From assembly GCA_946628965.1 (NCBI GenBank), contig CAMOXI010000004.1, positions 2,639 to 66,638 of the forward strand: DNA of 64,000 bases, in the 5' to 3' direction. Positions within the stretch are counted from its first letter, which is position 1. Every line of letters begins with the position of its first letter. This document shows, in pieces, positions 9,533 through 52,975 of the stretch. This DNA comes from an uncultured Clostridia bacterium (lineage in GTDB: Bacteria > Bacillota > Clostridia > Oscillospirales > Oscillospiraceae). The notes beneath the pieces are model-generated. The model saw nothing but the letters and a program-made list of their open reading frames with translations. It was not told where the DNA came from and did not search any database. The position numbers were made by a program, and so were the translations under genes.

Positions 9533-9538
9533 CTCGTC

Positions 9539-10360: not shown

Positions 10361-10389
10361 CAGAGAAAACAATTTGAAAGGAGATTATT

Positions 10390-23057: not shown

Positions 23058-23288
23058 AAGCGCTCTCCTGCATGAGAAAGGATTTGAGATGCTCTGAGTA
23101 TAGCACGAATCCCGCTCCCTGCGAAGGGGTTAAACGGCTTATTTCACCCGAATCCGAAAAATCCCTTGCGCCGGGAAAGCGGAATATGATAAGGTAGGAA
23201 AACAGACGGCATTCTGTTCGGAACACACCGTGCTTTCCGGATTTCCGCGGTGCTTCGCCGCGATAAACAGCCTGAATCGGAGACCTGT

Positions 23289-25052: not shown

Positions 25053-25068
25053 AGAGGAGGGACAGCCT

Positions 25069-38110: not shown

Positions 38111-38289
38111 GGCGCATTCCTCCCCGTCTCTTGTTCTCCCCGGCGCCAAAGCGCGGGGAAACTTGTCATTTTATATATTATATATCCAATTCCGCCCTTC
38201 TGGCAAGAGAAAGACTGCGCCCGCGGCACTTGCAGAATCGAACGGAACAGAGTAAGATAAGGAAAAACAATATTGACAAGGAGCATGAC

Positions 38290-39609
38290 ATGAAGCTGCA
38301 GCTGCATACCACCTACGGCGGCGGAAACTGGGACGAACAGTTTACGCAGACCGTTCTGTTTGTCCCCGGCGAGACGGAAAACCGCGTCGTCAACCTCTAC
38401 CCCGAGATCGCGTTCCAGACGCTGGAGGGCTTCGGCGGCGCCATCACCGATTCGGCCGCCTATATCTATTCTTTGATGAATGCGCCCCAGAAGCGGAAGC
38501 TGATGGAGACCTACTTCTCCCCCGAGCGCATGAACTATCAGATGGTCCGCATCCCCATCGACAGCTGCGATTTCTCCGTGGAGCAGTATGAGGCCTGGAC
38601 AGAGAGCGGCGCGCTGGACTTTTCGCGGGTGGAGAAGTACATTCTCCCCATGCTGCGGGACGCCGAGGCCGCTGCCGGGCGGAAGCTCCCGCTGCTGCTG
38701 GCGCCCTGGTCCCCTCCCGCCCACATGAAGACGAACGGACAGCGCCATCAGGGCGGCAAGCTCCGGGAGGAGTGCCGGGCGGGCTACGCCGAGTATCTCT
38801 GCCGATATATCGAGGAGTATCAGAAGCGTGGCTTTCTCGTCCGGGCCCTGAGCCTCCAGAACGAGCCGAAGGCCGTGCAGACCTGGGACTCCTGCGTCTA
38901 CACCGCCGCGGAGGAGAAGGCCTTCCTGCGCGATTATCTCCGGCCCGCGCTGGAAAAGCATGGGCTCACGGGGCTGGAGATCTATCTCTGGGACCACAAC
39001 AAGGAGCGTGTCTACGAATGGATGCGGGATATTATCGACGATACGACCGATCCCATGGTCACCGGCGCCGCCTTCCACTGGTACAGCGGCGACCATTTTG
39101 ATGCCCTGGATCTCTGCCGGCAGCGCTTCCCGGATAAGAAGCTGATCCTCTCCGAGAGCTGCATCGAGTTTTCCAAGTTTGACGCCGATGATCACTTTGG
39201 CGCAGCCTCGCTCTTCGCCCACGAGATGCTGGGCGATCTGAACCATGGCATCTGCTTCTTCGGCGACTGGAACCTGCTCCTCGACGAGGAGGGCGGCCCC
39301 AACTATGTGGGCAACTACTGCCTTGCTCCCTTCCTTTTTGACACGAAGAAAAAGCAGCTGCAGCCCCAGCTTCTGCAGCAGTATATGGAGCATTTCTCCC
39401 GCACGCTGACGCCCGGCTCCGTCCGCATCGGCATGAGCCGCTATGCCGAGGGCGTGGAAGTCACGGCCTGGAAGCGGCCGGACGGAAGCCTCGCCCTGGT
39501 GCTGCTCAACAAGGGCGAAAAGGAAGCGCCCGTAGTCGTCCGTCTGAACGATCAGGAGGCGGCCCTGCTGCTCATGCCCCGCTCCATCTCCAGCGCGGTG
39601 ATCGAGTGA
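38290..39609 (+). CDS. Glycoside hydrolase family 30 (glucosylceramidase-like)
   Basis: ATG 38290. Contains EGFGGAITDSAA, acid/base context LSLQNEP, nucleophile context LILSESC, and a C-terminal beta-sandwich. Confidence 0.85.
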   Translation: MKLQLHTTYGGGNWDEQFTQTVLFVPGETENRVVNLYPEIAFQTLEGFGGAITDSAAYIYSLMNAPQKRKLMETYFSPERMNYQMVRIPIDSCDFSVEQYEAWTESGALDFSRVEKYILPMLRDAEAAAGRKLPLLLAPWSPPAHMKTNGQRHQGGKLREECRAGYAEYLCRYIEEYQKRGFLVRALSLQNEPKAVQTWDSCVYTAAEEKAFLRDYLRPALEKHGLTGLEIYLWDHNKERVYEWMRDIIDDTTDPMVTGAAFHWYSGDHFDALDLCRQRFPDKKLILSESCIEFSKFDADDHFGAASLFAHEMLGDLNHGICFFGDWNLLLDEEGGPNYVGNYCLAPFLFDTKKKQLQPQLLQQYMEHFSRTLTPGSVRIGMSRYAEGVEVTAWKRPDGSLALVLLNKGEKEAPVVVRLNDQEAALLLMPRSISSAVIE

Positions 39610-39626
39610 CCTTTTTCTCAGAAATG

Positions 39627-39661
39627 CAAAAACGGCGTCCCAAACGGGACGCCGTTTTTTT
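39627..39661. terminator. Bidirectional terminator between GH30 and the sugar ABC operon
   Basis: AAAAACGGCGTCCC-AAAC-GGGACGCCGTTTTTTT. Confidence 0.85.
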
Positions 39662-39672
39662 GATGGTATGCC

Positions 39673-40533
39673 TCAGCCTTTCACCGCGCCGCTGGTCATG
39701 CCGGCGATGATCTGCTCCTGGAAGAGCACGTAGCCGATGATGGACGGGACGATGGAGATCACGATGGCCGCGTACATGGACACGTAGTCGGTGGAGAACT
39801 GGTTGGTGAAGTAGCGGATACCGACCTGGATGGTGCGCAGCTTCTCGGAGGAGACGATGAGGTTTGCGAAGATGAATTCGTTCCAGCAGGTGAGGAACTG
39901 GAAGGTGGCCGCGGTGACGATGCCGGTGCGGCTCAGCGGCAGGATGATGTGGAAGAAGCGCCCGTAGAAGCCGCAGCCGTCGATGTAGGCCGCCTCCTCC
40001 AGCTCCATGGGGATGGAGTCCATCAGCCCGCGGATCAGGAAGGTGGACATGGGGATGCCGATGGCGCAGTAGAGCAGGATCATGCCGCCATAGGTGTTGT
40101 AGAGGCCCAGCTTGTTGATGATGACGAAGTAGGGCACCATCAGGGCGCTCAGCGGCACCAGAATGCCGGCGGTGAAGAGCGTGTAGATGCTCTCACGCCC
40201 GCGGAAGCGGAAGCGGGAGATACAGTAGGCGCCCATGCTGGCGATGATCACGTTCACAAGCGTTGCCACCAGACCCACGATGACGGAGTTGAGCAGCATG
40301 CGGCCCAGACCCGCCACGGACAGGGCGTTGGTGTAGTTCTGCCACTGGGGGACGGCGGGCAGCGCAAAGGGCGACTTGGTCAGGAACTCAAAGTTTGTCT
40401 TCAGCGAGGAGGACAGCAGCCACAACAGCGGGAACAGGGTGTAGACCGCGAAGAAGATGATCAGGATCCAGCGCAGGATCGCGAGCACCAGCTCTTTTCC
40501 GCGAAGAGGAGGACGGAGACGGGTTTCACTCAT
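39673..40533 (-). CDS. Carbohydrate ABC transporter permease (MalG/CUT1 type)
   Basis: 286 aa, 6 TM. EAA loop LEEAAYIDGCGFYGRFFHIILP. ATGA overlap with the upstream permease gene. Confidence 0.9.
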   Translation of the reverse strand: MSETRLRPPLRGKELVLAILRWILIIFFAVYTLFPLLWLLSSSLKTNFEFLTKSPFALPAVPQWQNYTNALSVAGLGRMLLNSVIVGLVATLVNVIIASMGAYCISRFRFRGRESIYTLFTAGILVPLSALMVPYFVIINKLGLYNTYGGMILLYCAIGIPMSTFLIRGLMDSIPMELEEAAYIDGCGFYGRFFHIILPLSRTGIVTAATFQFLTCWNEFIFANLIVSSEKLRTIQVGIRYFTNQFSTDYVSMYAAIVISIVPSIIGYVLFQEQIIAGMTSGAVKG

Positions 40534-41438
40534 TTCACAGCCCTCCTTGCCTTCTTGGGCTTGACCGTTTCGCCGCGGCCGTTGAAAAGCGTGCGGATCG
40601 TGATGATGAAGATCACGCCCACGATGATCAGGATGACGGCCGTAGCGCTGGCAAGGCCGTAGCTCTCGCTCTGCAGGCGCTCGTACATGTACAGCACCAT
40701 CGTCGAGGTGCGGTGGTTCGGGCCGCCGTTTGTGAGCATGTAGACCTGCTCGAACTGCCGCAGACCCATGACGCTGGCCAGCGTCACGCAGGTCAGCAGC
40801 GAGGTCTTCTTTATCAGCGGGATCGTGATGTAGATCGCCTGCTGGAAGTCCGTCGCGCCGTCGATGGTCGCGGCCTCATAGTACGAAGTGTCGATCGTGG
40901 TGATGTCCGCCATCATGATGACCATGTAATAGCCCACATAGAAGACCCAGTAGATCAGCACCGCCGGGAAGGCCGTGCCGCTGTTGCCGAGCCAGTCGGT
41001 GGTGAGACTGCCGAGACCGATGGCGCTCAGCAGGCCGTTGAGCATGCCGTGTTCGGCGTTGTAGATCGCGCGCCACAGTGTAGCCAGCGCGATGCCGGAA
41101 ATGACCTGGGGGAAGAAGTACACTGTGCGGAAGAACTTCCAGCCCTTCGGCTTGCGGGAGAGGATGATTGCCATGACCATCGCGAGCGGCACCTGGATGA
41201 AGCCCGCCACCAGCGCCCAGATGATGTTATTCTTCAGGGAGCGCTGGAAGGTGGAGTTTTTCAGGAGCTTCACGAAGTTTTCAAGGCCCACGACCTGGGG
41301 CGCGGAGATGCCGTTCCATTTCAGGCAGCTGACCACAAGAACGTAGAGGATGGGAATGATGAAAAAGATCACCATGACCGCGATCGCAGGGGCCATGAAG
41401 GCCGCCAGCGCTCTTCTGTCAGATGATGTGGGTTTCAA
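40530..41438 (-). CDS. Carbohydrate ABC transporter permease (MalF/CUT1 type)
   Basis: Start set at TTG 41438, 6 nt after GAAGGAGG. EAA loop YYEAATIDGATDFQQAIYITIP. Confidence 0.88.
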   Translation of the reverse strand: MKPTSSDRRALAAFMAPAIAVMVIFFIIPILYVLVVSCLKWNGISAPQVVGLENFVKLLKNSTFQRSLKNNIIWALVAGFIQVPLAMVMAIILSRKPKGWKFFRTVYFFPQVISGIALATLWRAIYNAEHGMLNGLLSAIGLGSLTTDWLGNSGTAFPAVLIYWVFYVGYYMVIMMADITTIDTSYYEAATIDGATDFQQAIYITIPLIKKTSLLTCVTLASVMGLRQFEQVYMLTNGGPNHRTSTMVLYMYERLQSESYGLASATAVILIIVGVIFIITIRTLFNGRGETVKPKKARRAVK

Positions 41439-41631
41439 AGGACCGCCTCCTTCTAAAATCACCTGCAAAACGTCTGCTTTGCAAGCGAGGACTCGCGCTT
41501 ATCGCACGCGGCGGTGCGTGACGCGCCGCATCTGGTCGGCGAGAGGCCTCACAGTGTTCGGCTCAGGGAGTTTTTGCCGGAACGAAGCTCGCCAAAACGA
41601 TGGCAGCTCCCTTCGGGAGTGCTTTGTAATG

Positions 41632-41664
41632 GTACAGGCTGCGGCTCAGCACCGCAGCCTGTAC
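41632..41664 (-). promoter_or_regulatory. Intercistronic stem-loop after the binding-protein gene
   Basis: 13-bp perfect stem GTACAGGCTGCGG / CCGCAGCCTGTAC with a 7-nt loop. Lies 38 nt after the stop at 41702, inside a 263-nt gap before the permease start. Confidence 0.6.
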
Positions 41665-41701
41665 AGCGGATTCAACTAACTACGGTTCGGCTCGGTCAGG
41701 C

Positions 41702-42973
41702 TCAGGCCATGTCAATGGCTTCCTGGAGCTGATCGACGAAGCCCTGGGCGTCAACGTCGCCGTTGATGAGAGCGGCCAGAGCGGAGGGGAACTCGGTGGA
41801 GAAGGCGGTGGGGAAGGCGCCGTTCACATGCAGGATGGTGAAGGCGGCGTTGTTGGCAACCTCAGTGACCTTCTGGGAGATGGGACGGGTCTCCTCGGCG
41901 GGCGTATACTTGACGAAGAACATGGCGCCGGAGGACAGAGCCAGCTCGGAGACGTGCTCAGGATCGGTGAGGTACTGGAGGAACTTCACAACGGCAGCTT
42001 CCTTCGCAGGATCGTCCTGCTTGCCGGCAGCCAGGAAGCCCTGGACGGTGGTCACGAGACCGCCTTCGCCAAGGCCGCCCTCGTACACGGGGTTGGTGGC
42101 GACTTCGACGGAGTCAGCCAGGAGCTTGCCGTCAACAGCGTTGTCTTCTTTGTAGAAGTTGGCGATCCACCAGGGGCCGTTGAGGTAGATGGCGGTGTCG
42201 CGGGCGATGAAGTGGCCGTTCACGTCGGCAGCGCCGGCGGAGACAGCGCCGTCAAAGGTGTAGTCATACATCTTCTTGAGAACCTCGGCAGCTTCCACGA
42301 AAGCGGGATTCTCCAGGCCGTCGGCATAGACGTCCTTGCCGCCGATGGCCTCAACGATCAGGGAGTACCAAAGCATGGAGGACCAGCCGTTCTCACCGGC
42401 CATCTGGCCCATAACGTTGTAGCCGGCGGCCTTCACGTCCTCGGCCATCTGGAAGAACTCCTCATAGGTGGCGGGGAAGTGATCCCAGCCGGCAGCCTCG
42501 AAGATGTCCTTGTTGTAGATCGGGGTAAAGACAGCGGCCTCGAAGGGCAGGATGCTGACCTTGCCGTCAACGCTCCAGGCGTCGAAAGCACCGTCGGCAA
42601 AATCCTCGCCCCAGCCCTCTTCCAGGTACGGGGTCAGATCCATGAACTTGCCGGACTCGGCATAGGCCTTGATATCGAAGGTAGTGTCAAGGATGCAGAT
42701 GTCGGGGGTGTTGCCGGTGGTGACGGTGGTGCGGATCTTGTCACGGTAGGCCTGGTAGTCGGTCTGCTCTTCGACGACGACCTTGATGGAGCCGGCGTTC
42801 TCTTCGTTGAACTTCTCGATCAACTCAGACATGTAAGCGGCCTTGGAGTCGGTGCCGACCCAGATGCTGGGGAAGTTGATGACGATCTCACCGTCTGCAT
42901 GGGCAGGCTGGGCGATCGGGGCCAGGGTGAAGACCATGACCAGTGCAAGCAGCAGTGCAAATACTTTTTTCAT
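41702..42973 (-). CDS. Carbohydrate ABC transporter substrate-binding protein (candidate sulfoquinovose / SQ-glycerol binding protein)
   Basis: 423 aa with signal peptide MKKVFALLLALVMVFTLAPIAQPAHA and a family-1 sugar-binding fold by resemblance. The substrate is inferred only from the locus. Confidence 0.85.
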   Translation of the reverse strand: MKKVFALLLALVMVFTLAPIAQPAHADGEIVINFPSIWVGTDSKAAYMSELIEKFNEENAGSIKVVVEEQTDYQAYRDKIRTTVTTGNTPDICILDTTFDIKAYAESGKFMDLTPYLEEGWGEDFADGAFDAWSVDGKVSILPFEAAVFTPIYNKDIFEAAGWDHFPATYEEFFQMAEDVKAAGYNVMGQMAGENGWSSMLWYSLIVEAIGGKDVYADGLENPAFVEAAEVLKKMYDYTFDGAVSAGAADVNGHFIARDTAIYLNGPWWIANFYKEDNAVDGKLLADSVEVATNPVYEGGLGEGGLVTTVQGFLAAGKQDDPAKEAAVVKFLQYLTDPEHVSELALSSGAMFFVKYTPAEETRPISQKVTEVANNAAFTILHVNGAFPTAFSTEFPSALAALINGDVDAQGFVDQLQEAIDMA

Positions 42974-42986
42974 ACACGTTCTCCTT

Positions 42987-43007
42987 TTGATTAACTTCTT
43001 TAAGTAA
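42987..43007. promoter_or_regulatory. AT-rich 21-bp imperfect palindrome in the leader of the ABC operon (candidate ROK operator)
   Basis: TTGATTAAC-TTC-TTTAAGTAA. Shares TTGATTAA-N4-TTTAA with the minus-strand reading of 47369..47389. Lies between the promoter and the SD of the binding-protein gene. Confidence 0.4.
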
Positions 43008-43044
43008 TTCGCCGAAAAAAAGAACCCCGGCGGTCTGTATCTTC

Positions 43045-43073
43045 ATTATAGAGATACTTTCATTTTTTGTAAA
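43045..43073 (-). promoter_or_regulatory. Consensus sigma-A promoter of the sugar ABC operon
   Basis: Minus strand: TTTACA, 17 nt, TATAAT. Confidence 0.6.
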
Positions 43074-43130
43074 GCTTTTTGGCCTGCACGAATTCGTAGA
43101 TTCTCTCCCTATGTTTTTGTTGATATTCAC

Positions 43131-43168
43131 GAAAAAGAAAAACGAGAGCCCTTTTCAAGGCTCCCGTT
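43131..43168 (-). terminator. Rho-independent terminator after the GH31 gene
   Basis: Minus strand: AACGGGAGCC-TTGAAAAG-GGCTCTCGTT (one G-U pair) followed by TTTCTTTTTC. Lies 36 nt after the stop at 43204. Confidence 0.7.
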
Positions 43169-43203
43169 TTCATGCATTTTGACGCCGTTGATGGAGATAA
43201 CTG

Positions 43204-45195
43204 TCAGTTTTTGAGGCTCTCGAAGAGTGCGGCATCGTCCGTGCCGCGGCGATAGAAGACCGGGGGCTGCCCGATGGGGGCCGCGACCTCCGTCCAGCCG
43301 CCCGGATACTTTTCGCCGCTCCAGAGATGGATCCACTCCCCTGCCGGGAGCCACACACGCCGCCTTTCGGCGCCCGGTTCCACCACCGGGGCCACCAGCA
43401 GATCATCCCCCAGCAGATAGCTGTAGAGGCGGTGATCCCAGGCCTCCGCCGCCTCCGGCTGCAGGAAGAACAGCGGGCGCATCACCGGCAGGCCCGAGGC
43501 CGCGTTTTCTTCCACGCAGCGTTTCAGATAAGGCAGCAGCGCGTTGTGAAGTGATGTCATGTGCGCGGCAAAGGCCAGCAGCTCCGGCGTGTCGTAGAGC
43601 TGGACATTGGAGTCGGGGCGGTTGCCCTCATGGGTGCGCATGACCGGCGTGAAGGCCGCAAACTCCAGCCAGCGCTGCATCAGTTCCTCGTCCCGGTGCA
43701 GGTGGAAGAGCGTAGTGTAGCCGCCGATGTCGCAGGTGTGCAGGCCGTAGCCGCTGAGGCCGGCGCTGAGCGCCGCGGTGATCACCGAGGGCAGCCCGTC
43801 GTCCTCCGACCAGTCCACACACTGATCGCCCGCCCAGAGGAGCGTGGAATACCGCTGGCTCCCGGCCGCGCCGGAGCGCATGAAGAACACGCAGTCCCCC
43901 AGTTTGCCGGCCTCCTCCACGGCCTCGCGGTTGCACCTGGCCCAGAGCATGGGCCAGGCGTTGTGCATCTGCAGGCCGCTGCCGCCGCGGCAGACCGCGT
44001 CCGCCGGGAGATACTCGCCGAAGTCCGCCATCCAGCCCTTGAAGCCCAGGCCGATCAGATTTGTCTTGATGACTTCCTTGTACCAGGTGAAGGCCGCGGG
44101 ATCGGTCAGATCCACGACGCCGCAGTTGAATTCACCGAAGTCGAAGAGATAATCCTCCCCGGCGGCGTTTTTGACGAAATAGCCCTTTTCAGCCGCCTCC
44201 CGGAACAGGACGCCGCCCTCCACCAGGTAGGGGTTGATGTAGCCCATCCAGGCCGTGCCGGTATCCTTTTGAATGATCTCATCCAGGCCGGGATACATCT
44301 CCCGGTTCCAGCGCCAGTCCCACTGCAGGCGTTTGCCGAAGGAGGTGACGCGCTTGCCCTCCCAGTCCTGGATCCAGACGGCGGAGACGTCCAGCCCCGC
44401 ATCCAGGCAGCGCTTCTGCAGCGCGGTCACGCGCTCGGTGCCGCCCTGTACGCCGAGCCAGAGGCCCCGCATCGCCCAGTCGGGCAGGGCGGGCTGACGG
44501 CCCAGCAGGGCCGTAAGCTTTTCCAGCAGGGCGGGAAAGCTCTCCGCAGCGGCAAAGCTCAGGTGCACGCGGGTCGTCCAGAGGCCCAGCTCATGGAAGT
44601 CTCTCTCCCGCAGATCCAGCTCCGCATATTCATAATTGTGCAGATGGGCGAAATACAGCCGTGAGGACAGCAGGGTCGGCTGGGGGAAGAAGGTGGTGTG
44701 GTAATCGCCGCCGCTCCCGTCCAGCGCGTCGGCCAGGCGGGTGACCTCGGTCAGCTTGTTGCGGCCCACGCCCTGCTCCCGCGTCCAGATGGGCCAGAGC
44801 CTGCCGCGCAGGTCCAGCGCCGAAAACTGCTCGCCCCCGCCGCAGAGGTGCTCGCCCTCCTCGGCGTACAGGCGCAGCCAGAGCCGGTTCCAGTCCGGGT
44901 CATCACATTCGCCGGTGATGTCCAGGCGGCCCTCCCGCTCCGCAAAGCGCAGGCGGTATTCGCCTGTGAGGACGGGGCTTCCCAGCCGCAGCACGCCGTC
45001 CGCAAAGCCGATCGGGCGCAGCGCCGTGCGCTCGTCCACCCTGTCGCGGATGTCAAAATTGCCGCAGAACATGTGAATATTCTCTTTTCCCCGGCCGAGA
45101 AACAGCGCGGGGGCATCCGGGGTATCCTGGATCAGCAGTTTCCCGTCCAGCCGAAGCGCAAAGCCCTCGCCGGGGCGGATCTCCAATTCGTACAT
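43204..45195 (-). CDS. GH31 glycosidase with sulfoquinovosidase-type active-site pattern (YihQ-like)
   Basis: 663 aa. IQDWEGKRVTSFGKRLQWDWRW (Arg289-x-x-Trp292); nucleophile context GWMADFGE (Asp391); acid/base WAGDQ (Asp457); DIGGYT (Tyr493). The spacings match those I recall for E. coli YihQ R301/W304/D405/D472/Y508. Confidence 0.8.
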   Translation of the reverse strand: MYELEIRPGEGFALRLDGKLLIQDTPDAPALFLGRGKENIHMFCGNFDIRDRVDERTALRPIGFADGVLRLGSPVLTGEYRLRFAEREGRLDITGECDDPDWNRLWLRLYAEEGEHLCGGGEQFSALDLRGRLWPIWTREQGVGRNKLTEVTRLADALDGSGGDYHTTFFPQPTLLSSRLYFAHLHNYEYAELDLRERDFHELGLWTTRVHLSFAAAESFPALLEKLTALLGRQPALPDWAMRGLWLGVQGGTERVTALQKRCLDAGLDVSAVWIQDWEGKRVTSFGKRLQWDWRWNREMYPGLDEIIQKDTGTAWMGYINPYLVEGGVLFREAAEKGYFVKNAAGEDYLFDFGEFNCGVVDLTDPAAFTWYKEVIKTNLIGLGFKGWMADFGEYLPADAVCRGGSGLQMHNAWPMLWARCNREAVEEAGKLGDCVFFMRSGAAGSQRYSTLLWAGDQCVDWSEDDGLPSVITAALSAGLSGYGLHTCDIGGYTTLFHLHRDEELMQRWLEFAAFTPVMRTHEGNRPDSNVQLYDTPELLAFAAHMTSLHNALLPYLKRCVEENAASGLPVMRPLFFLQPEAAEAWDHRLYSYLLGDDLLVAPVVEPGAERRRVWLPAGEWIHLWSGEKYPGGWTEVAAPIGQPPVFYRRGTDDAALFESLKN

Positions 45196-45229
45196 GCTTT
45201 CCTCCTGGGATATTTATATGATCTGTCGT

Positions 45230-45847
45230 TTATTCATTGTACCAGGCGTCGCCCTCGTTCTGGTCGGCCGTAAGAGGGCGGAACACCGGCTCGATGCTCA
45301 GGCTCATCAGCAGGCAGAGAACGCCGGGCAGCAGCGGCAGCAGCGGCGGGATCAGCCAGACGATCAGGCCGAAGAGCGCAAGCTCCGCCGCAAGCAGCAG
45401 TGTGACGCCGAAATGCCGCAGGGCGAGATAGGCCGAGAATTTCAGCGTCCCACCCAGGCTGTTCTGAAAACGGGAGAGGAAGGCGAATAGCCAGGGAAAC
45501 AGCAGCAGCGGCAGCAAAAGCAGCAGCCGCACCAGATAGTAGAGCGCGCTCCCCCGCTCGATTCCCATGCTCCCCAACGCATACGCATTGGCAAGGCCGA
45601 TCAGGACATAGAGCACCAGCAGCAGCCACAGCAGGGTCCCCTGCCGGAAGTTTTCGCGGAAGGCACGAAAAAAGCTCTTCGTCAGGCTGCCCCGCTCATG
45701 CCGGATGCACTTGACCGTCACATAGTAGAGCGCCGTGCTGGCAGCGCCGACGGTGACAAGCGGCAGCGAACAGAGAAGCCACAGCACGCCCGCCCAGATC
45801 ACATCCGACAGCGCGGCCACCACCGCGTGGAAGCGGGACTGCTTCAT
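45230..45847 (-). CDS. YesL/DUF624 family membrane protein
   Basis: The sequence VIWAGVLWLLCSLPLVTVGAASTALYYVTVKCIRHERGSLTKSFFRAFRENFRQG is the family hallmark. Shares 1 nt (TGATG) with the upstream isomerase stop. Confidence 0.8.
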   Translation of the reverse strand: MKQSRFHAVVAALSDVIWAGVLWLLCSLPLVTVGAASTALYYVTVKCIRHERGSLTKSFFRAFRENFRQGTLLWLLLVLYVLIGLANAYALGSMGIERGSALYYLVRLLLLLPLLLFPWLFAFLSRFQNSLGGTLKFSAYLALRHFGVTLLLAAELALFGLIVWLIPPLLPLLPGVLCLLMSLSIEPVFRPLTADQNEGDAWYNE

Positions 45848-47184
45848 CAGTAGCGGTACACGGGGAAGCCGAACATCTCGGCCAGGGCGCTCAGGGTCTC
45901 GCCGTGGCGGCCCTTGAGCACCACGAAGTGGGGTTCAAATCCGTCACGCACGCTCTGCTCCACGATGGTGCGGCTGTTGTTGTCGGTACGCACCACGATG
46001 GAGGTGCCGATGAACTGCTTGGGCTTGTCCAGCGCCTCACCCTCGGTGATGAAGAAGCGGAAGCTGCCGTCCGGCTCGCGGCCGATGCGGAAGACTGTGG
46101 CCTCCGGGAAGGACTCGCAGCCGAAGTCCATGGCCGGGCCGATCTTGCGGTTGGGATGCACGCCCACCACCGCGCCGGTGTCGTGCCGGGCCAGGGAGCA
46201 GGCGGCCGCGCCGCAGTGCCAGAAAGTGATGGTGTTCTCCCCCTCGTCGAGAGAGACCGGGTCACCGAAGAAGACCGGCTCACCGGAGAGCTGCATGCCG
46301 ATCCACATGGACAATGCGCCGTAGATATCGGCCTCGCAGGCGGCGGCCACGCCCTCGTCGTTCAAAAGACTCAGCACCGTGCAGACGGGGGTGCCGAAGG
46401 CAGTGAAGAAATCGGGCCAGCAGCGGGAGGCCAGGGCGCCGATGTTGTGGCCGCGGACATAGTCGGTATAGGCCTTGTAGAGTCTCGCGTGGTCCAGGCG
46501 GTTTTTCTCCGGGGTATGCTCCAGGCCGCAGGTAGCCGCGTCGGTGCGCTGCAGATACTCGGCGCACTCCTCGTCGGTATAGCCCTTGGCCATGTCGATG
46601 AGCTCCCGGGCCTCGATGGCCTCCAGCTCCACGCCGAAGCTGTTCATGATCTCGCTGTCCAGCGCGCGGCCAAAGCCGAAGCCCTGGGGCGTGTGGCCCA
46701 CGGCGGACATACGCAGGGAGCGCATCGCCTTTTTGACCCGGGCGGCCTCCACCGCGGCCTTCGCCGCGCGGATGACAGGCTCCTCCTCCGGGGCGCCGAA
46801 GGTGTAGGAAAAGGCGCGGTCGTCAAAGGCGCGCAGCGTGTTTGCCGCCGAGTAGGCGCCGGTCAGGGAGTTGAGGCGCAGGCGGCCGCCGTCGATCACC
46901 GGCTCACGCAGGGTCCAGAGCAGCACCGGGCAGTCAAAGCGGCGCAGCACCTCGGACATGTAGGCGGCATTGGCGAAGGTCAGGTTCTGGAAGACGATCA
47001 GATCCGGCTGCAGCGGGGCCAGATAGGCGCGCAGATCGTCCAGATTCAGCAGCATCTTTTCAGGCACGACAAAGTGCTCATCCAGGCCGCGGAGCAGCCG
47101 GATGCTGCGCTCAAACTGATCCTGCGCGCTCTCCAGATGGAAGGTGGGCACCCCCACCGGAATATAGACAGGGCAAAAGCTCAT
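45847..47184 (-). CDS. L-fucose/L-arabinose-isomerase-family sugar isomerase (candidate sulfoquinovose isomerase)
   Basis: 445 aa. N-terminal Rossmann-like domain (VYIPVGVPTF..LIVFQNLTFANAAY..PVLLWTL) and a C-terminal FucI-type barrel by resemblance. The role is inferred from context. Confidence 0.75.
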   Translation of the reverse strand: MSFCPVYIPVGVPTFHLESAQDQFERSIRLLRGLDEHFVVPEKMLLNLDDLRAYLAPLQPDLIVFQNLTFANAAYMSEVLRRFDCPVLLWTLREPVIDGGRLRLNSLTGAYSAANTLRAFDDRAFSYTFGAPEEEPVIRAAKAAVEAARVKKAMRSLRMSAVGHTPQGFGFGRALDSEIMNSFGVELEAIEARELIDMAKGYTDEECAEYLQRTDAATCGLEHTPEKNRLDHARLYKAYTDYVRGHNIGALASRCWPDFFTAFGTPVCTVLSLLNDEGVAAACEADIYGALSMWIGMQLSGEPVFFGDPVSLDEGENTITFWHCGAAACSLARHDTGAVVGVHPNRKIGPAMDFGCESFPEATVFRIGREPDGSFRFFITEGEALDKPKQFIGTSIVVRTDNNSRTIVEQSVRDGFEPHFVVLKGRHGETLSALAEMFGFPVYRY

Positions 47185-47226
47185 AAAGAAATCCTCCCGT
47201 AAAATAATTAGTTAACGCTATGAAGC

Positions 47227-47255
47227 ATCATAGACCGACTTGTCCCTTCTGTCAA
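47227..47255 (-). promoter_or_regulatory. Candidate sigma-A promoter of the isomerase-YesL-GH31 operon
   Basis: Minus strand: TTGACA, 17 nt, TATGAT. The -10 lies inside the palindrome CTATGA-TGCT-TCATAG. Confidence 0.5.
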
Positions 47256-47334
47256 GGCGTTGTCGCAGAAAAGCTCCCGTCCGGGGCAGATCCTTCAAAA
47301 ACCTGTATAATTGTCCTTTTCTGCGATCTTGCTG

Positions 47335-47363
47335 TTGACAAAGCGGCCCGCAAGGGGTACACT
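47335..47363 (+). promoter_or_regulatory. Candidate sigma-A promoter of the transketolase operon
   Basis: TTGACA, 17 nt, TACACT. About 45 nt upstream of the TTG start at 47409. Confidence 0.5.
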
Positions 47364-47368
47364 TCTTT

Positions 47369-47389
47369 TTGGTTAAATCTTTTAATCAA
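47369..47389. promoter_or_regulatory. AT-rich 21-bp palindrome at the predicted transcription start (candidate ROK operator)
   Basis: TTGGTTAAA-TCT-TTTAATCAA, with 8 of 9 arm positions complementary. Lies immediately downstream of the -10. Confidence 0.45.
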
Positions 47390-47408
47390 TCATAAGGGGG
47401 AACCAGAA

Positions 47409-48236
47409 TTGAGCTACAATCTGAAGGAAGTCAGCAAGGATATCCGCTGCGATATTCTTCGCTGCATCGGGCATCTCGGCGTCGGCCACATCGGCGGCTG
47501 CCTTTCGGTGGCGGAGTTGCTGGCTGTGCTGTACTTTGAGGCGATGAACATCGATCCCGCCAATCCCAAGATGGAAGGCCGCGACCGCTTCGTCTGCTCC
47601 AAGGGTCACGCGGGCCCCGCAGTCTACGCTGCGCTGGCCAACCGCGGCTACTTTGACAAGAAGGAGCTGCTCACCCTGAACCAGGGCGGCACCAATCTCC
47701 CCTCCCACTGCGATATGAACCGCACCATCGGCATCGACATGACCACCGGCTCCCTGGGCCAGGGCTTCTCCTGCGCCGTGGGCGTTGCGCTGGGCAGCAA
47801 ACTGGAAGAGGACGGTGCGACCGTCTACACCCTGATCGGCGACGGCGAGAGCCAGGAGGGCCAGATCTGGGAGGCCGCCATGTTCGCCGCCGCGAAGAAG
47901 CTGGATAACCTGATCGCCTTTACCGACTACAACAAGTTCCAGATCGACGACTGCGTCGCCAAGGTCAACGACATCGCGCCGCTGGCGGAGAAGTGGGCTG
48001 CCTTCGGCTGGAACGTGATCGAGGTGGAGGACGGCAACGACGTGGAGCAGGTCTCCGAGGCCGTGAAGCACGCCAAGCTCGGCCGCGGCAGCGAGAAGCC
48101 CACCATGGTCATTCTCAACACCGTCAAGGGCTGCGGCGTCCAGTGGATCGTGGATCTGGGCGCGGGCAATCACAACTGCAAGATCACCGAGGAGCAGGCC
48201 GAGGAGGCCATCCGCGTGATCAGAGAGGAGAACTGA
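47409..48236 (+). CDS. Transketolase, N-terminal (TPP-binding) subunit
   Basis: TTG 47409, 7 nt after AAGGGGGA. Contains HIGGCLSVAELLAVLYF, SKGHAGPAVYA, and the TPP motif GDGESQEGQIWEAAMFAAAKKLDNLIAFTDYN. Confidence 0.9.
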   Translation: MSYNLKEVSKDIRCDILRCIGHLGVGHIGGCLSVAELLAVLYFEAMNIDPANPKMEGRDRFVCSKGHAGPAVYAALANRGYFDKKELLTLNQGGTNLPSHCDMNRTIGIDMTTGSLGQGFSCAVGVALGSKLEEDGATVYTLIGDGESQEGQIWEAAMFAAAKKLDNLIAFTDYNKFQIDDCVAKVNDIAPLAEKWAAFGWNVIEVEDGNDVEQVSEAVKHAKLGRGSEKPTMVILNTVKGCGVQWIVDLGAGNHNCKITEEQAEEAIRVIREEN

Positions 48237-48239
48237 GCC

Positions 48240-49163
48240 ATGGAAATGAGACAAGTTTATGCGAGCTGCCTGGCCGAACTGATGGAGAAGGACCGGCACG
48301 TCTGCGTCCTGGACGCGGACCTGGCCAAAGCCAGCGGCACCCGCGGCCTGTACGAGCGCTTCCCGAAGCAGATGTTTGACTGCGGCGTGGCCGAGCAGGA
48401 CATGGCCTCCATCGCCGCCGGTCTCTCCAGCTACGGCTTCAAGCCCTGGATCGAGAGCTTCACGCCCTTCGCCTCCCGCCGCATCTGCGACCAGATCGCC
48501 ATCTCCATCTCCTATGCCAAGCGCAACGTGAAGATCGTCGGAACCGACCCCGGCATCTCCGCCGAACTCAACGGCGGCACCCACATGAGCATGGAGGACA
48601 TCGGCGTTCTCCGTTCCATCCCCGGCGTCGTGATCTTCGAGCCGGTGGACGCGGTGCAGCTGCGCGCCGCCATGCCCGTGCTGAACGAGTACGACGGGCC
48701 TGTGTACGTGCGCCTGTTCCGCAAGGAGCTGCCGGACGTGTTTGAGGAAGGCTACCAGTTCGATCTCTTCAAGGCCGACCTGCTGAAGGAAGGCAGGGAT
48801 CTGACGATCTTCGTCAGCGGCTTCCAGACCAAGCATGTGCTGGACGTGGTGCCCGAACTGAAAGAGGCCGGCATCGACGCCGAGGTCATCAACATCCACA
48901 CCATCAAGCCCATCGACCGGGAGAGCGTCATTGCCTCCGCCCGCAAGACCGGCGCCGTGCTGACCGTGGAGAACCATAACGTCATCGGCGGTCTGCACTC
49001 TGCCGTGCTCGAGGCGCTGGCCGAGGAGAAGATCCCCGCCGTCGCCGTCGGCGTGCCCGACCGCTTCGGCGAAGTGGGCAAGATGCCCTACCTGGAGAAG
49101 GTGCTCGGCATGACGAAGGAAGACATCGTCGCCGCCGCGAAAAAGGCTGTCAGCCTTAAATAA
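48240..49163 (+). CDS. Transketolase, C-terminal (pyrimidine-binding) subunit
   Basis: 307 aa. Contains FDCGVAEQDMASIAAGLS, GGTHMSMEDIGVLRSIPG, and a C-terminal domain. Starts 4 nt after the N-subunit stop. Confidence 0.9.
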   Translation: MEMRQVYASCLAELMEKDRHVCVLDADLAKASGTRGLYERFPKQMFDCGVAEQDMASIAAGLSSYGFKPWIESFTPFASRRICDQIAISISYAKRNVKIVGTDPGISAELNGGTHMSMEDIGVLRSIPGVVIFEPVDAVQLRAAMPVLNEYDGPVYVRLFRKELPDVFEEGYQFDLFKADLLKEGRDLTIFVSGFQTKHVLDVVPELKEAGIDAEVINIHTIKPIDRESVIASARKTGAVLTVENHNVIGGLHSAVLEALAEEKIPAVAVGVPDRFGEVGKMPYLEKVLGMTKEDIVAAAKKAVSLK

Positions 49164-49175
49164 CAAATAACAAAG

Positions 49176-49208
49176 CCAGAAAACGCCCGGAAACCGGGCG
49201 TTTTCTGG
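49176..49208 (+). terminator. Intra-operon stem-loop (attenuator or partial terminator) between transketolase and the RpiB-family gene
   Basis: 15-bp perfect stem CCAGAAAACGCCCGG-AAA-CCGGGCGTTTTCTGG. No long U-tract beyond the stem. Confidence 0.5.
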
Positions 49209-49238
49209 AACATGATGAGATAAAGGAGAACAAACGCA

Positions 49239-49715
49239 ATGAAAATTGCTATCGGAAGCGACAAGTCCGGTTTTTCCGCCAAGGAAGCCATCAAGGCCTA
49301 TCTGCTCGAATGCGGCGCCGATTTTGAAGATCTCGGCACCACCGACCTCAACGCCGTCCACCCCTACTACCAGGTGGCATCTGAAGTCGCCCCCCTGGTG
49401 CAGAGCGGCAAGTTTGACCGCGCCATCCTGATCTGCGGCACCGGCGCCGGCATGTCCGTGGTCGCCAACAAGTACAAGGGCGTTTACGCCGTCGCCTGCG
49501 AGGGCGTGTACTCCGCCAAGATGGCCCGCGCCATCAACAACGCCAACATCCTCTGCATGGGCGGCTGGATCGTCGGCCCCGAGATGGCCGTCGAGATGGT
49601 CAAGACCTTCCTCGCCACCGACTGGTGCCAGGATCTGGAGGATTGGCGCGCCGCGAACATGCACAAGTTTGCCCGCCAGGTCTCCGCGATTGAGGACAGC
49701 ATCTATGATCGCTGA
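49239..49715 (+). CDS. RpiB/LacA/LacB-family sugar(-phosphate) isomerase (candidate sulfoerythrose isomerase)
   Basis: 158 aa. MKIAIGSDKSGF and the catalytic-Cys segment ILICGTGAGMSVVANK. Confidence 0.88.
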   Translation: MKIAIGSDKSGFSAKEAIKAYLLECGADFEDLGTTDLNAVHPYYQVASEVAPLVQSGKFDRAILICGTGAGMSVVANKYKGVYAVACEGVYSAKMARAINNANILCMGGWIVGPEMAVEMVKTFLATDWCQDLEDWRAANMHKFARQVSAIEDSIYDR

Positions 49716-50802
49716 GTTTGTATACAGCCAGCCGGTCAAGATCTGGTTCGGCGAGGGGCAGTTTGCCCGCCTGGGCGAGATCCTGAATGAGCTCGGAAGT
49801 CAGTCCTGCGTCATCGCCTGCGGCCGCCATTTTGCGCCCGAGGCCGAAGCGCTCATGGGCAGAGAGCCCCGTATCAAGGCCGTTTTTGGCGCTGTGGAGC
49901 AGAACCCGCAGCTTTCCGGCATTGAGGAGACCGTCCGGCTCGCCCGCGCGCACGTGGCCGACACCGTGATCGGCATCGGCGGCGGCAGCTCCATCGACAC
50001 GGCGAAGTTTGCCGCGGCCATCGCCCGCGGTGAGGGCGAGGCGGAGGAGTACTTCCGCGGCACCCTTCCCTTCCCCGCCGAACGGCTCACCATCGTGGCC
50101 GTGCCCACCACCGCCGGCACCGGCAGTGAAGTGACCCAGGTCTCCGTCGTGAGCTTCGGCAAAGAGAAGAAGACCATCAACAACCCGGTCTTCATGCCCC
50201 GGGCTGCCATCGTCGACCCGCTGATGAGCGCCGGCGTCCCGCCCCGCACCACGATGAACACCGGGCTTGACGCCATGGCCCACGCGCTGGAGGGCTACTG
50301 GAGCCGCAACCACCAGCCGATCCCCGATCTGATGGCGATCGAGGCGGTGCGTCTCATCCTGAATAACCTGGAGCGCGCCTGGCGCGACGGCTCGGACCGG
50401 GAGGCCCGCGCCGCCATGGCCTACGCCTCTCTCCTGGGCGGGCTCAGCTTCGCCCTGCCCAAGACCGCAGCGAGCCACGCCTGCTCCTATCCCCTGTCCG
50501 AGGATTACCATCTGCCCCATGGCGAGGCCTGCGCCTTCACGCTGGACAGCCTGGTGCGCATCAACGCCGACGAGCGGCTGGAGCATTTGGCGCAGGCCGT
50601 CGGCCTGAAGGACACCGAAGAGCTGGCCGAGCGCATCGCCGCCCTCAAGAAGATGGCCGGCCTGCGCACCCGTCTGAGCGAGCTGGGCGAGGTGGATCTG
50701 GACAAGCTCTGCCGCGACTGCGCGGCCCATCCGCTGATGAAGAATAACCCCGTCCAACTGGACGAGGCCAGACTCCGGGAGATGTTTGAAGCGCTGCAAT
50801 GA
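49705..50802 (+). CDS. Iron-containing (group III) alcohol dehydrogenase (candidate sulfoacetaldehyde reductase)
   Basis: ATG 49705 overlaps the RpiB gene by 11 nt. NAD motif GIGGGSSIDTAKF. Metal-site histidines in DAMAHALE and HACSYPL..HLPHGEA. Confidence 0.88.
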   Translation: MIAEFVYSQPVKIWFGEGQFARLGEILNELGSQSCVIACGRHFAPEAEALMGREPRIKAVFGAVEQNPQLSGIEETVRLARAHVADTVIGIGGGSSIDTAKFAAAIARGEGEAEEYFRGTLPFPAERLTIVAVPTTAGTGSEVTQVSVVSFGKEKKTINNPVFMPRAAIVDPLMSAGVPPRTTMNTGLDAMAHALEGYWSRNHQPIPDLMAIEAVRLILNNLERAWRDGSDREARAAMAYASLLGGLSFALPKTAASHACSYPLSEDYHLPHGEACAFTLDSLVRINADERLEHLAQAVGLKDTEELAERIAALKKMAGLRTRLSELGEVDLDKLCRDCAAHPLMKNNPVQLDEARLREMFEALQ

Positions 50803-51713
50803 GGGACGATCTCAAATACACGCTGATGGTCATCGGCATGGTCCTCTCCTGGTCGGTCTACTACGCGGTCAGCAAGATCGTCGTCGACGCCACGGGTTCT
50901 CCCCTGCTCGCGGGCTTTCTGCTGCGTTCGGCGGCGCTGGTGTTTCTCACGCTGCAGCTGCTGCTGGATCAAAACTTCTCCCGCCTCTTTCACCAGGGCA
51001 AGGCGGTGCTGATCCTGGTCGTCATTGGCGTCTTCGGCTTTCTGCTGGATCTCTTTGCAAACCTCGGCTACGCGGGCGGCTCCCTGAGCACCGGCACGGC
51101 CCTTCTGAAGACCGACGTGCTGATGGTGAACCTGGTCACTGTGATCCTCTACCACAAGAAGCTATACATCTCCGACTGGCTGGGCACGCTGGTCATGCTG
51201 GCCGGCGTCCTGCTGGTGCTGGGGGTGGACTTCGGCGGGATGCAGTTTCATCCCACGGATCTCTTCTTCCTCCTCAGTGCCCTCTGTGTGACCGCCAACG
51301 CCTTCATCATCAAGACCGCACAGGAGAAGTACCATGAGGACGCGGACATGATCTCCTACTACAACAACGCCGTCGTGCTGTTGCTCTTCGGCGGTTCCGC
51401 CGCCGCGGCGGGGCAGATCGGCGCCGTCGCCATCGAGCGCAGCCCCTCGTTCTGGCTGCTGGTCGTGCTGGGCGGCCTTGCCCAGACCGGGATCTACTTC
51501 TTCTATTACCGCAATCTCCGCCACTTTGAAGTGTGGCTGGTGAAGCTCTACCTGCTGCTGATGCCGGTGCTGAGCTGCTTCATCGGGGTGTGGTTTCTCG
51601 GGGAAACGCTCACCGCCACAAAACTGCTCGGCATCCTGGTGGTGCTCACTGGCGCCGCCATCATTCTCCTGCGCGGCCGCATCAACCGCGCGGGCCGTGT
51701 CCAACGAAGCTGA
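50799..51713 (+). CDS. DMT-superfamily (EamA-like) transporter (candidate isethionate exporter)
   Basis: 304 aa, about 10 TM, two EamA-like halves. ATGA overlap with the dehydrogenase gene. Confidence 0.82.
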   Translation: MRDDLKYTLMVIGMVLSWSVYYAVSKIVVDATGSPLLAGFLLRSAALVFLTLQLLLDQNFSRLFHQGKAVLILVVIGVFGFLLDLFANLGYAGGSLSTGTALLKTDVLMVNLVTVILYHKKLYISDWLGTLVMLAGVLLVLGVDFGGMQFHPTDLFFLLSALCVTANAFIIKTAQEKYHEDADMISYYNNAVVLLLFGGSAAAAGQIGAVAIERSPSFWLLVVLGGLAQTGIYFFYYRNLRHFEVWLVKLYLLLMPVLSCFIGVWFLGETLTATKLLGILVVLTGAAIILLRGRINRAGRVQRS

Positions 51714-51751
51714 AGCCGGCGCTGCCGGTCCGGAAAGGAGGGGAACCGACC

Positions 51752-52975
51752 ATGCCCTCTGCGGGTGACAATATGATGGGCGTCAAGCGCAATAACCGCG
51801 CCGCCGCGCTGCGCATCCTGCACGAGGAGGGGAGCGTCTCCCGCAAGCGCCTGGCCGAGACGCTGGGCCTGACCCCGGCGGCGATCACCAAGATCGTCGG
51901 CGAGATGCTGAACGAAAAGCTCCTGAACGAGGGCAGCGCCGTTCTGAGCAGCAGTGCCGGACGGCGGGAGATCCTGCTGGAGCTCAACCCCCGCTACGGC
52001 GCGGCGCTGGGCGTGCTGATCAATCTGCGGCAGGCCATCGTGTCCGCCGTGTGGCTGGACGGCACGGTGATCTTCTCGGAGGAGTTCACGCTGCAGCCGA
52101 AGGCCCCGGCGGAGCCCACGGCCGGCATGCTGGCCGGGCGGCTGCTCGCCCTGATGGAGGAGCATCAGCTTTCCCGTGAGCGCGTGATCGGTCTCGGCAT
52201 CGCGGTGCGCGGCATCTGCTCGGCGGACGGGCGCACCGTCTGCGACAGCTTCGGCGCTCTGGCGGAGGAGAATTTCCCGCTATGCCAGCGCTTTGAGGAG
52301 CTGACCGGTTTCCCCGCCGTGATGAGCAACAATGTGCGCGCGCTCTTTGCCGCTCAGATGTATCTCTCCCGCGACCGGGCCGAGGGCGCGCAGTTCTTCC
52401 TGCGCTGTGAGTACGGCATCGGCGCCTCCCTGTCCGTGGATGGGCAGATCTGGAGCGGCGTAACCGAGCAGTGCGCCGAGATCGGGCATATCCCCGTGAT
52501 CCCCCGGGGCGGCAAGCCCTGCTCCTGCGGCAAGAGCGGCTGTCTGGAGACCATCGCCTCCCCTGCCGCCATCGTCGAAGATGCGACAGCCATCCTCTCG
52601 GAGGAGAAAACGCCGGTGCTGTGGAAGCTCCGGCAGGAAAAAGGCGATGCGCCGCTGAACATCTACGACGTGATGAACGCCGCAGCCGGCGGCGACCAGG
52701 GCGCCTCCGCCATCGTGGACCGGGCGGTATCCGCCCTCGGCACGGCGCTCAAATCCGTCATCTATCTGCTGGACCCGGGCAAGATCGTCCTCTACGGCCA
52801 CATGTTCGAAGACCCCTATTACCTGCTGCGGCTCCTGAGCGAGATGCGCGAGGGCGTGGATACGCGCCATGCCGCGGTCATTGAGCGCAGCCGCTACAAT
52901 CTGAAGCTGGAGAACAAGGCGGCAAGCCTGCTGGCCGTGCGGAACTTTTACGAGCGCGGCGGCATCCGCGCCTGA
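51752..52975 (+). CDS. ROK-family transcriptional regulator
   Basis: ATG 51752, 7 nt after AAAGGAGGGG. wHTH RAAALRILHEEGSVSRKRLAETLGLTPAAITKIVGEM. ROK zinc motif CSCGKSGCLET. Confidence 0.85.
   Translation: MPSAGDNMMGVKRNNRAAALRILHEEGSVSRKRLAETLGLTPAAITKIVGEMLNEKLLNEGSAVLSSSAGRREILLELNPRYGAALGVLINLRQAIVSAVWLDGTVIFSEEFTLQPKAPAEPTAGMLAGRLLALMEEHQLSRERVIGLGIAVRGICSADGRTVCDSFGALAEENFPLCQRFEELTGFPAVMSNNVRALFAAQMYLSRDRAEGAQFFLRCEYGIGASLSVDGQIWSGVTEQCAEIGHIPVIPRGGKPCSCGKSGCLETIASPAAIVEDATAILSEEKTPVLWKLRQEKGDAPLNIYDVMNAAAGGDQGASAIVDRAVSALGTALKSVIYLLDPGKIVLYGHMFEDPYYLLRLLSEMREGVDTRHAAVIERSRYNLKLENKAASLLAVRNFYERGGIRA

Follow-up and report, generated by a model that had tools for sequence, protein, structure and literature searches.

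Does the ~13-kb locus at positions 39673-52975 of a 64-kb stretch of DNA from an uncultured Clostridia bacterium (contig CAMOXI010000004.1; the whole 64-kb stretch is called the window below) encode a full route from the sulfosugar sulfoquinovose (SQ) to isethionate? A first-pass annotation, made from the sequence alone, had claimed here a complete locus for transketolase-dependent sulfoglycolysis (sulfo-TK), the pathway that Liu et al. (2021) defined in Clostridium sp. MSTE9, with SqvD, SqwGH, SqwI, SqwF and SqwE as its proteins (PMC12890257, PMC9594981). All 12 of the genes it had named were found at or within ~70 nt of where it had placed them, and their family labels, from the permeases to the ROK regulator, were borne out by a check of the open reading frames (ORFs) and by Pfam and NCBIfam matches (Table 1). 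As each enzyme class of the published route is present, and the genes are contiguous and translationally coupled, the claim of a sulfo-TK locus is supported, and judging by its genes the locus very probably serves the isethionate-forming type of this pathway. Three independent sequence tests favour sulfosugar chemistry: the score and motif of the YihQ-type glycosidase, the fact that SftI is the only model matched by the isomerase, and an RAFDR motif in the transketolase. The further claim that every function of the route is present holds for all of its enzyme classes; it was slightly too strong, because neither an ABC ATPase gene nor a SqvB/DUF4867 gene lies in the locus.

Enzymes of the proposed route

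The comparisons below draw on a search of the GTDB species genomes with an alignment of transketolases, which gave at least 80 loci (designated by L-numbers), with which all twelve window proteins were compared. The glycoside hydrolase family 31 (GH31) protein of the window scored 877.9 bits against the YihQ equivalog model (NF007746 / PRK10426), above the cut-off of 553, and aligned end to end with the E. coli YihQ (EcYihQ) structure 5AED (E = 6.7e-219). Its D391 and D457 correspond to the EcYihQ catalytic pair, which we take to be D405 and D472 in the numbering of Speciale et al. 2016. The PDB entry 5AEE differs from 5AED in having Asn at that catalytic Asp position, which agrees with this numbering. 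In addition, Q250, Q276, R289, W292 and Y493 match EcYihQ Q262, Q288, R301, W304 and Y508, and the protein keeps the full Q/E-RWY motif for sulfonate recognition defined in PMC12780224. All seven diagnostic YihQ residues are therefore kept, in keeping with the sulfoquinovosidase residue pattern noted in the first-pass annotation, and the enzyme most likely hydrolyses SQ glycosides. Its N-terminus carries no signal peptide, and the glycoside must therefore be imported. The FucI-like isomerase had a sole NCBIfam match, to the sulfoquinovose isomerase SftI (NF048012; E = 7.8e-114, 380.8 bits, positions 5-440 of the 443 in the model), and its orthologues, 70-83% identical, hold the same position in loci L005-L007; a PDB search with this protein found nothing.

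The transketolase is split into two subunits. SqwG, the part that binds thiamine diphosphate (ThDP), carries the cofactor motif GDG...N at residues 144-175, and SqwH, with the Pyr and C domains, matched the split transketolase 6YAJ with E = 1.3e-73. When SqwH was aligned to 6YAJ, its residues R4, A31, F74, D103 and R161 gave RAFDR in place of the canonical RSFHR, and N111 was found in place of the 6YAJ Asp located eight positions beyond the motif His. Sulfofructose transketolases are described as having RAFDR instead of the phosphate-orienting RSFHR (Borusak et al., PMC11659671), and the spacing of the motif in the window protein (R4, A31, D103, R161) equals that in the SqwH of Faecalicatena (R9, A36, D108, R166). 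Among the at least 80 loci, the pair of changes from His to Asp and from Asp to Asn separates a clade containing all transketolases in sulfo contexts from the generic split transketolases, which keep both the His and the Asp.

Directly downstream of sqwH lies the gene of an RpiB-family protein, SqwI-like, which keeps the catalytic Cys (CGTG) but has Ile in place of the His of the RpiB 'HNxAN' motif and lacks the C-terminal GGRHxxR, a pattern common to all the SqwI-like homologues found in sulfo contexts. It scored 126.3 against the rpiB equivalog model TIGR01120, under the cut-off of 138.65. In the RpiB proteins of E. coli and M. tuberculosis this His opens the furanose ring and a cluster of Arg and His residues binds the phosphate; the loss of both from SqwI would fit an acyclic, sulfonated tetrose as substrate.

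The proposed pathway

Taking the steps from the published route and the sequence features from the locus itself, we propose the following scheme. The CUT1-type ABC system, made up of the binding protein, the two permeases and the DUF624 protein, would import SQ glycosides (sulfoquinovosyl glycerol, for example), powered by an ATPase encoded at another site of the genome, and the cytoplasmic YihQ would free SQ from them. The SftI/SqvD-type isomerase would then convert SQ to 6-deoxy-6-sulfofructose, from which SqwGH would transfer C1-C2 to glyceraldehyde-3-phosphate, giving xylulose-5-phosphate and 4-deoxy-4-sulfoerythrose. The RpiB-like SqwI would isomerize the sulfoerythrose to sulfoerythrulose, and a second round of SqwGH would yield a second xylulose-5-phosphate and sulfoacetaldehyde. 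The latter would be reduced to isethionate by the iron-dependent alcohol dehydrogenase (Fe-ADH), with regeneration of NAD+, and the isethionate exported by the EamA transporter. As long as no sulfosugar effector is present, the ROK protein probably keeps the promoters of sqwG and the binding-protein gene repressed by way of a 21-bp palindrome.

Gene layout and candidate regulatory elements

The genes and elements of the locus are listed in Table 1. The 224-bp spacer between the divergent operons holds two sigma-70-like promoters, TTGACA-17-TATGAT on the minus strand (47255-47227) and TTGACA-17-TACACT on the plus strand (47335-47363), the latter, on the sqwG side, being kept in L005 and L007 as the sole conserved part of the intergenic alignment. 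Overlaps of start and stop codons, which the first-pass annotation had also reported, were confirmed between the genes of permease 1 and permease 2 (4 nt), the DUF624 gene and sftI (1 nt, shared with the sftI stop codon), sqwI and sqwF (11 nt) and sqwF and eamA (4 nt), while sqwG and sqwH are 3 nt apart and sqwH and sqwI 75 nt apart. SqwG, whose homologues are 275 aa long, starts at a TTG (47409) located 8 bases after an AAGGGGG ribosome-binding site; this start and those proposed earlier for SqwF (49705) and the ROK protein (51752) give products of 275, 365 and 407 aa that are exact entries in a public protein collection. The start of permease 1 is ambiguous among TTG 41468, TTG 41438 (with a GGAGG ribosome-binding site) and ATG 41396; the public gene call of 288 aa matches the last of these, and the start is likely TTG 41438 or ATG 41396. 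The GC content is even over the region (60-65%), and scans of the window for tRNAs and Rfam families found nothing.

Table 1. Genes and sequence elements of the putative sulfoquinovose locus, with positions in the window
Feature	Position	Strand	Evidence or location
CUT1-type ABC permease 2 (MalG/UgpE-like)	39673-40533	-	PF00528 6e-19; best NCBIfam GlcU, UgpE, MalG
CUT1-type ABC permease 1 (MalF/UgpA-like)	40530-41468	-	PF00528; best NCBIfam GlcT, UgpA, MalF
Extracellular solute-binding protein (family 1)	41702-42973	-	SBP_bac_8 + SBP_bac_1
21-bp imperfect palindrome, candidate operator	42987-43007	.	Between -10 box and ribosome-binding site, binding-protein gene
Putative sulfoquinovosidase (YihQ, GH31), cytoplasmic	43204-45195	-	NF007746 877.9 bits
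DUF624 / YesL / MusI-family membrane protein	45230-45847	-	PF04854 1.3e-17
Putative sulfoquinovose isomerase (SftI/SqvD family, FucI-like)	45847-47184	-	NF048012
Divergent promoter region (224-bp spacer)	47185-47408	.	Two sigma-70-like promoters
21-bp palindrome TTGGTTAAATCTTTTAATCAA, candidate ROK operator	47369-47389	.	Between sqwG -10 box and ribosome-binding site
Putative sulfofructose transketolase subunit G (ThDP-binding N-terminal part)	47409-48236	+	PF00456 1.5e-46
Putative sulfofructose transketolase subunit H (Pyr + C domains)	48240-49163	+	PF02779 + PF02780
Perfect 15-bp-stem GC-rich hairpin, CCAGAAAACGCCCGG AAA CCGGGCGTTTTCTGG	49176-49208	.	In sqwH-sqwI gap
RpiB-family isomerase (SqwI-like)	49239-49715	+	PF02502 6.6e-43
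Sulfoacetaldehyde reductase candidate (SqwF-like Fe-ADH)	49705-50802	+	PF00465 + PF25137
EamA/DMT transporter, candidate isethionate exporter	50799-51713	+	PF00892, two stretches
ROK-family regulator (NagC/Mlc-like, winged helix-turn-helix + ROK)	51752-52975	+	PF00480 8e-33, HTH_24

The last gene of the plus-strand operon encodes the ROK-family protein, which scored 159 bits against the NagC model and 141 bits against the Mlc model and carries CSCGKSGCLE, an instance of the zinc motif CxCGxxGCxE that is typical of ROK proteins; an orthologue of 55% identity holds the same position in L005. Among the papers that could be searched, none ties the ROK family to sulfoquinovose. We propose the 21-bp palindrome as the predicted operator of this protein. 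The pattern TTGNTTAAA-N3-TTTAANCAA occurs twice in the 64 kb, once in each of the sqwG and binding-protein promoters, as against 0.02 occurrences expected by chance, a post hoc figure because the pattern was built from these two sites; it was looked for in the orthologous L005 locus and not found there. For these two reasons we regard the operator as a lead and not as a finding. The hairpin in the sqwH-sqwI gap, which has no counterpart in L005-L007, may serve as an attenuator or affect the stability of the mRNA.

Points against the sulfo-TK assignment and alternative explanations

Several observations, which concern the isomerase, the transketolase, the importer, the exporter and the reductase, weigh against the sulfo-TK assignment. 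The isomerase score lies under the SftI equivalog cut-off of 700, which places the protein at the family level only. Such a score is expected, because a published sulfo-TK isomerase, that of Faecalicatena, is just 32% identical to Bacillus SftI (PMC11659671). Split transketolases without sulfo genes nearby (L009, L010 and L086) likewise have the RAFD(N)R motif, and those of L009 and L010 came out as the closest outgroups to the window clade in a neighbour-joining tree. The motif must be regarded as necessary and not sufficient, and because motif-bearing transketolases also sit outside sulfo contexts the assignment of the window transketolase rests mainly on its gene context. Transketolase identity as a criterion of orthology was tried and rejected, as split transketolases 57-61% identical to that of the window stand in non-sulfo contexts and those in sulfo contexts were not monophyletic in a quick neighbour-joining tree. 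The comparison with profile models that the first-pass annotation had suggested as a check was thus favourable in part: YihQ passed its cut-off and the isomerase matched SftI alone, while the scores against SftI and the sulfoacetaldehyde reductase model SarD (see below) were sub-cut-off.

The importer is where the assignment is most exposed to an alternative, namely that the core of the locus is sulfo-TK but the ABC module serves another oligosaccharide, with SQ or its glycosides entering by another carrier. The binding protein had as its nearest solved structures the xylo-oligosaccharide binders 4G68 and 8XBA (E ~1e-21), and SmoF was not among its 40 PDB matches at E<=1e-5; a glycoside hydrolase family 30 (GH30) gene lies just beyond the permeases, and L005 and L007 share the core without this transporter within 10 kb. 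Moreover, a terminator-like hairpin stands behind yihQ (43171-43138) and the binding-protein gene has a promoter of its own (TTTACA-17-TATAAT at 43073-43045), and the importer is therefore its own transcription unit. Of the two operons that had been claimed, both divergent ones stand, but the transporter genes form an additional unit. On the other hand, the palindrome is common to this unit and the sqwG operon, being confined in the 64 kb to these two promoters; orthologues of the binding protein and the permeases flank a cluster of transketolase and RpiB-like genes in the Halanaerobiales metagenome-assembled genome (MAG) of L012 (binding-protein orthologues are 43-61% identical); a DUF624 gene, whose product probably assists the importer as an accessory subunit (100 bits against the MusI family model NF052431, under the cut-off of 160), lies inside the sftI-yihQ operon; and a cytoplasmic YihQ needs glycoside import. 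We consider it unlikely that the importer serves another sugar, and presume from these features that the binding protein takes SQ glycosides. The CUT1 importer proposed at first is borne out in its binding protein and two permeases, though an ABC ATPase gene is missing from the locus. The N-terminus of the binding protein is a signal peptide, MKKVFALLLALVMVFTLAPIAQPAHA, without a lipobox cysteine, which is unusual for a Gram-positive solute-binding protein.

At the other end of the pathway, the Fe-ADH has the usual cofactor motifs, and a PDB search with it returned generic alcohol dehydrogenases only. Its best NCBIfam match was to the PsrA of phosphonate metabolism (TIGR03405; 204 bits, under the cut-off), and against SarD it reached 174 bits, under the cut-off of 700; nor did the candidate exporter match TauE, the exporter type of SqwE. 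Sulfoacetate-forming variants of sulfo-TK are also known (PMC12890257), and it could be argued that the route reaches sulfoacetaldehyde while the Fe-ADH acts on another substrate (glycolaldehyde or lactaldehyde), the end product being, for example, sulfoacetate formed by enzymes encoded elsewhere. Yet the Fe-ADH gene overlaps both sqwI and the exporter gene, and it keeps this position in L005 and L007, where its orthologues are 66-76% identical and those of EamA 63-76%. Family searches found no genes for an aldehyde dehydrogenase or CoA-ligase (SqwD or SqwKL) in the locus, the archetype SqwF is likewise a PF00465 enzyme (PMC9594981), and rumen microcosms formed isethionate (PMC13219744). An end product other than isethionate seems to us highly unlikely.

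We give hardly any credence to the degradation of a non-sulfonated alpha-glycoside by a transketolase route (apiose/apulose-like, or through another unphosphorylated ketose) whose resemblance to sulfo-TK is superficial: RAFDN split transketolases do stand beside ordinary sugar ABC transporters without sulfo genes (L009, L086), and transketolase identity alone does not discriminate, but the GH31 protein keeps its complete sulfonate-recognition motif and passes the YihQ cut-off, the isomerase matches no model besides SftI, the exporter is translationally coupled to the reductase, and the locus has no sugar kinase, though a phosphosugar transketolase route would need one.

The transketolases outside sulfo contexts merit a description in their own right. 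Variants with the His-to-Asp and Asp-to-Asn changes (RAFDN, RCFDN and KCFDN) occur in L009, L010 and L086, and a further transketolase with this signature and no sulfoglycolysis genes beside it lies at 17414-19175 of L005; that of L009 adjoins a Bmp-type ABC system and that of L086 a CUT2 ABC system, a DUF4432 gene and an aldehyde:ferredoxin oxidoreductase. From such sequences, sulfofructose transketolase may be one branch of a wider, little-explored class of split transketolases for non-phosphorylated ketoses. In L087 (77-6454), genes for an aldehyde:ferredoxin oxidoreductase, a carrier of the Na+/sulfate-symporter family, a split transketolase (RAFAN), an SqwI-type RpiB-like protein and a TauE exporter run in one direction; neither YihQ nor SftI was found on this 10.5-kb contig. 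Its gene content may reflect a pathway akin to sulfo-TK that uses the aldehyde:ferredoxin oxidoreductase to oxidise the aldehyde.

Neighbouring genes in the window

The GH30 gene (PF02055 + PF17189; 38131-39609, plus strand) converges on the last permease gene, and the spacer between the two (39624-39657) holds a palindromic, terminator-like hairpin that could act in both directions, aaaaacggcgtccc aaa cgggacgccgttttttt. An ORF on the opposite strand (38074-39393, minus strand) was considered as a member of the operon and rejected: it had no family match, the reading frame 38131-39609 on the plus strand being the GH30 gene, and it is probably spurious. Housekeeping genes elsewhere in the window include a cluster of an Rrf2 regulator, a class-V aminotransferase (IscS/NifS-like) and a NifU-like scaffold (2768-5065) and the sporulation pair spoIIGA-sigE (9458-11112); by their predicted products, the latter indicate an endospore-forming Firmicute. 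A UvrA-like double ABC ATPase of 836 aa (20547-23057, minus strand) adjoins two ABC exporter genes (23250-26847) and has homologues 79-84% identical in many rumen contigs, including those of Succiniclasticum ruminis and Acidaminococcaceae (Negativicutes); conservation across classes is unusually high for this gene and suggests lateral spread, and the gene gave no guide to the taxonomy of the source. Two long ORFs, 5728-9381 (minus strand, 1217 aa) and 54140-57418 (plus strand, 1092 aa), have a coding-like GC content at third codon positions. Neither had a Pfam family or a PDB relative, apart from a faint match of the 1092-aa ORF to the nucleotide-binding region of P-type ATPases (E ~1e-5 to 7e-4).

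Distribution and significance

Among the loci listed in the GTDB scan, the core was syntenic at 55-91% identity in three Clostridia MAGs. It extends as far as the regulator in L005, with sftI on the minus strand and sqwG-sqwH-sqwI-sqwF-eamA-rok on the plus strand (55-81% identity), as far as eamA in L007 (76-91% identity) and as far as sqwI in L006. An Izemoplasmatales MAG (L011) has yihQ, permeases, sftI, sqwGH and sqwI. The GH31 genes beside the orthologous cores of L005 (4526-6169) and L006 (6655-8304) encode proteins only 37-41% identical to the window YihQ, with Gln and Phe at the sites of the sulfonate-binding R301 and Y508; they appear non-orthologous to it and may be another type of sulfoquinovosidase or another glycosidase. 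SqwG had more than 120 clusters (clustered at 90% identity) at 86-99% identity to it, the named ones being Oscillospiraceae or Clostridia MAGs, and the SqwI cluster had 1029 members. Exact window proteins were present on sheep-rumen metagenome contigs (ENA ERZ28612943 'SHIW14-1' and ERZ12302819). The source is probably a rumen member of the Oscillospiraceae.

The first-pass annotation had considered the locus a possible new instance of the pathway and the most distinctive system of the window. It is indeed a further instance, but its novelty was overstated, as the pathway has already been reported, and found transcribed, in rumen Oscillospiraceae. Sulfo-TK was reported in 2026 as the dominant route of SQ in the cow rumen, and 35.5% of 313 genomes of Ca. 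Limivicinus (Oscillospiraceae) encode it; its core genes were highly transcribed in SQ-amended rumen fluid, isethionate was formed, and SQ-dependent growth or induction with excretion of isethionate is on record for rumen communities and Caproiciproducens KNHs216 (ISME J, PMC13219744). The locus is therefore another member of the known rumen sulfo-TK set and not a new system, and it leaves the current understanding of the pathway unchanged. Its exporter is not new in kind, because a drug/metabolite permease is already the candidate exporter in Faecalicatena, in which sulfo-TK has been shown physiologically (PMC11659671). The only unreported details are the ROK regulator and the candidate 21-bp operator; the supplementary tables of PMC13219744 contain no annotation of a DMT exporter or a ROK regulator.

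We hold it tentatively, and with somewhat more doubt than confidence, that the locus represents a version of sulfo-TK distinct in its regulation and transport (ROK repressor, DMT exporter, an importer unrelated to SmoF) and that the wider transketolase class exists as well. If this were true, the ROK protein would be the first repressor of its family tied to sulfoglycolysis; it would sense a sulfosugar and bind the palindromic pattern in the promoters of sqwG and the binding-protein gene. Export of isethionate would then fall to a DMT carrier, and uptake of SQ glycosides to a binding protein that is not related to SmoF and has a DUF624 protein as its partner. About 10 petagrams of SQ are formed each year, and the isethionate that arises from it by fermentation sustains sulfite-respiring bacteria and the formation of H2S in the gut (PMC12890257, PMC13219744). 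To this the locus contributes a single complete and clearly bounded example from the sheep rumen. The great abundance of its SqwG and SqwI homologues supports the published conclusion that SQ in ruminants is turned over mainly by sulfo-TK. In practice, the locus is of use for rules of annotation (the YihQ motif, RAFDR with the Asn, an RpiB without the His) and for candidate parts (the ROK regulator with its putative operator, the DMT exporter and the new type of binding protein).

Comparison with known systems

With the canonical split transketolase and RpiB (6YAK of C. hydrogenoformans and 1O1X of T. maritima) the window proteins share the fold and the cofactor motifs, and SqwI also has the catalytic Cys of RpiB. 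They differ from them in that SqwH has Asp for the phosphate-orienting His and Asn for the neighbouring Asp, and SqwI has Ile for the His and no C-terminal phosphate motif.

The bifurcated sulfo-TK/transaldolase (sulfo-TK/TAL) system of Faecalicatena sp. DSM22707 (PMC11659671) resembles the window in the spacing of RAFDR, in having a drug/metabolite permease for its candidate exporter, and in its ABC importer. The window lacks the transaldolase genes, however, and has a GH31 YihQ whereas Faecalicatena has an NAD+-dependent sulfoquinovosidase; the binding protein of Faecalicatena is 32% identical to SmoF, while that of the window has no detectable similarity to it. The clusters of rumen Oscillospiraceae (Ca. 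Limivicinus sp900317375) and of other rumen taxa share with the window a rumen origin and a sulfo-TK of the isethionate type that contains YihQ; compared with the published drawing of these clusters, which includes SmoE/SmoFGH and SqwE, the locus is without an ATPase and has an EamA exporter.

The first-pass annotation had surmised that the set of transporters might differ from the published cluster, and this proved correct with respect to MSTE9: the exporter is of the EamA/DMT type and not the TauE type of SqwE, and the binding protein does not resemble SmoF. In addition, the regulator of the window belongs to the ROK family, and the SqvB/DUF4867 gene has no counterpart. By the published description, however, the window and MSTE9 agree in their enzyme families and in the logical order of these, in a reductive, isethionate-forming pathway linked to YihQ, and the RAFDR head-group motif described for sulfofructose transketolases is found again in the SqwH of the window.

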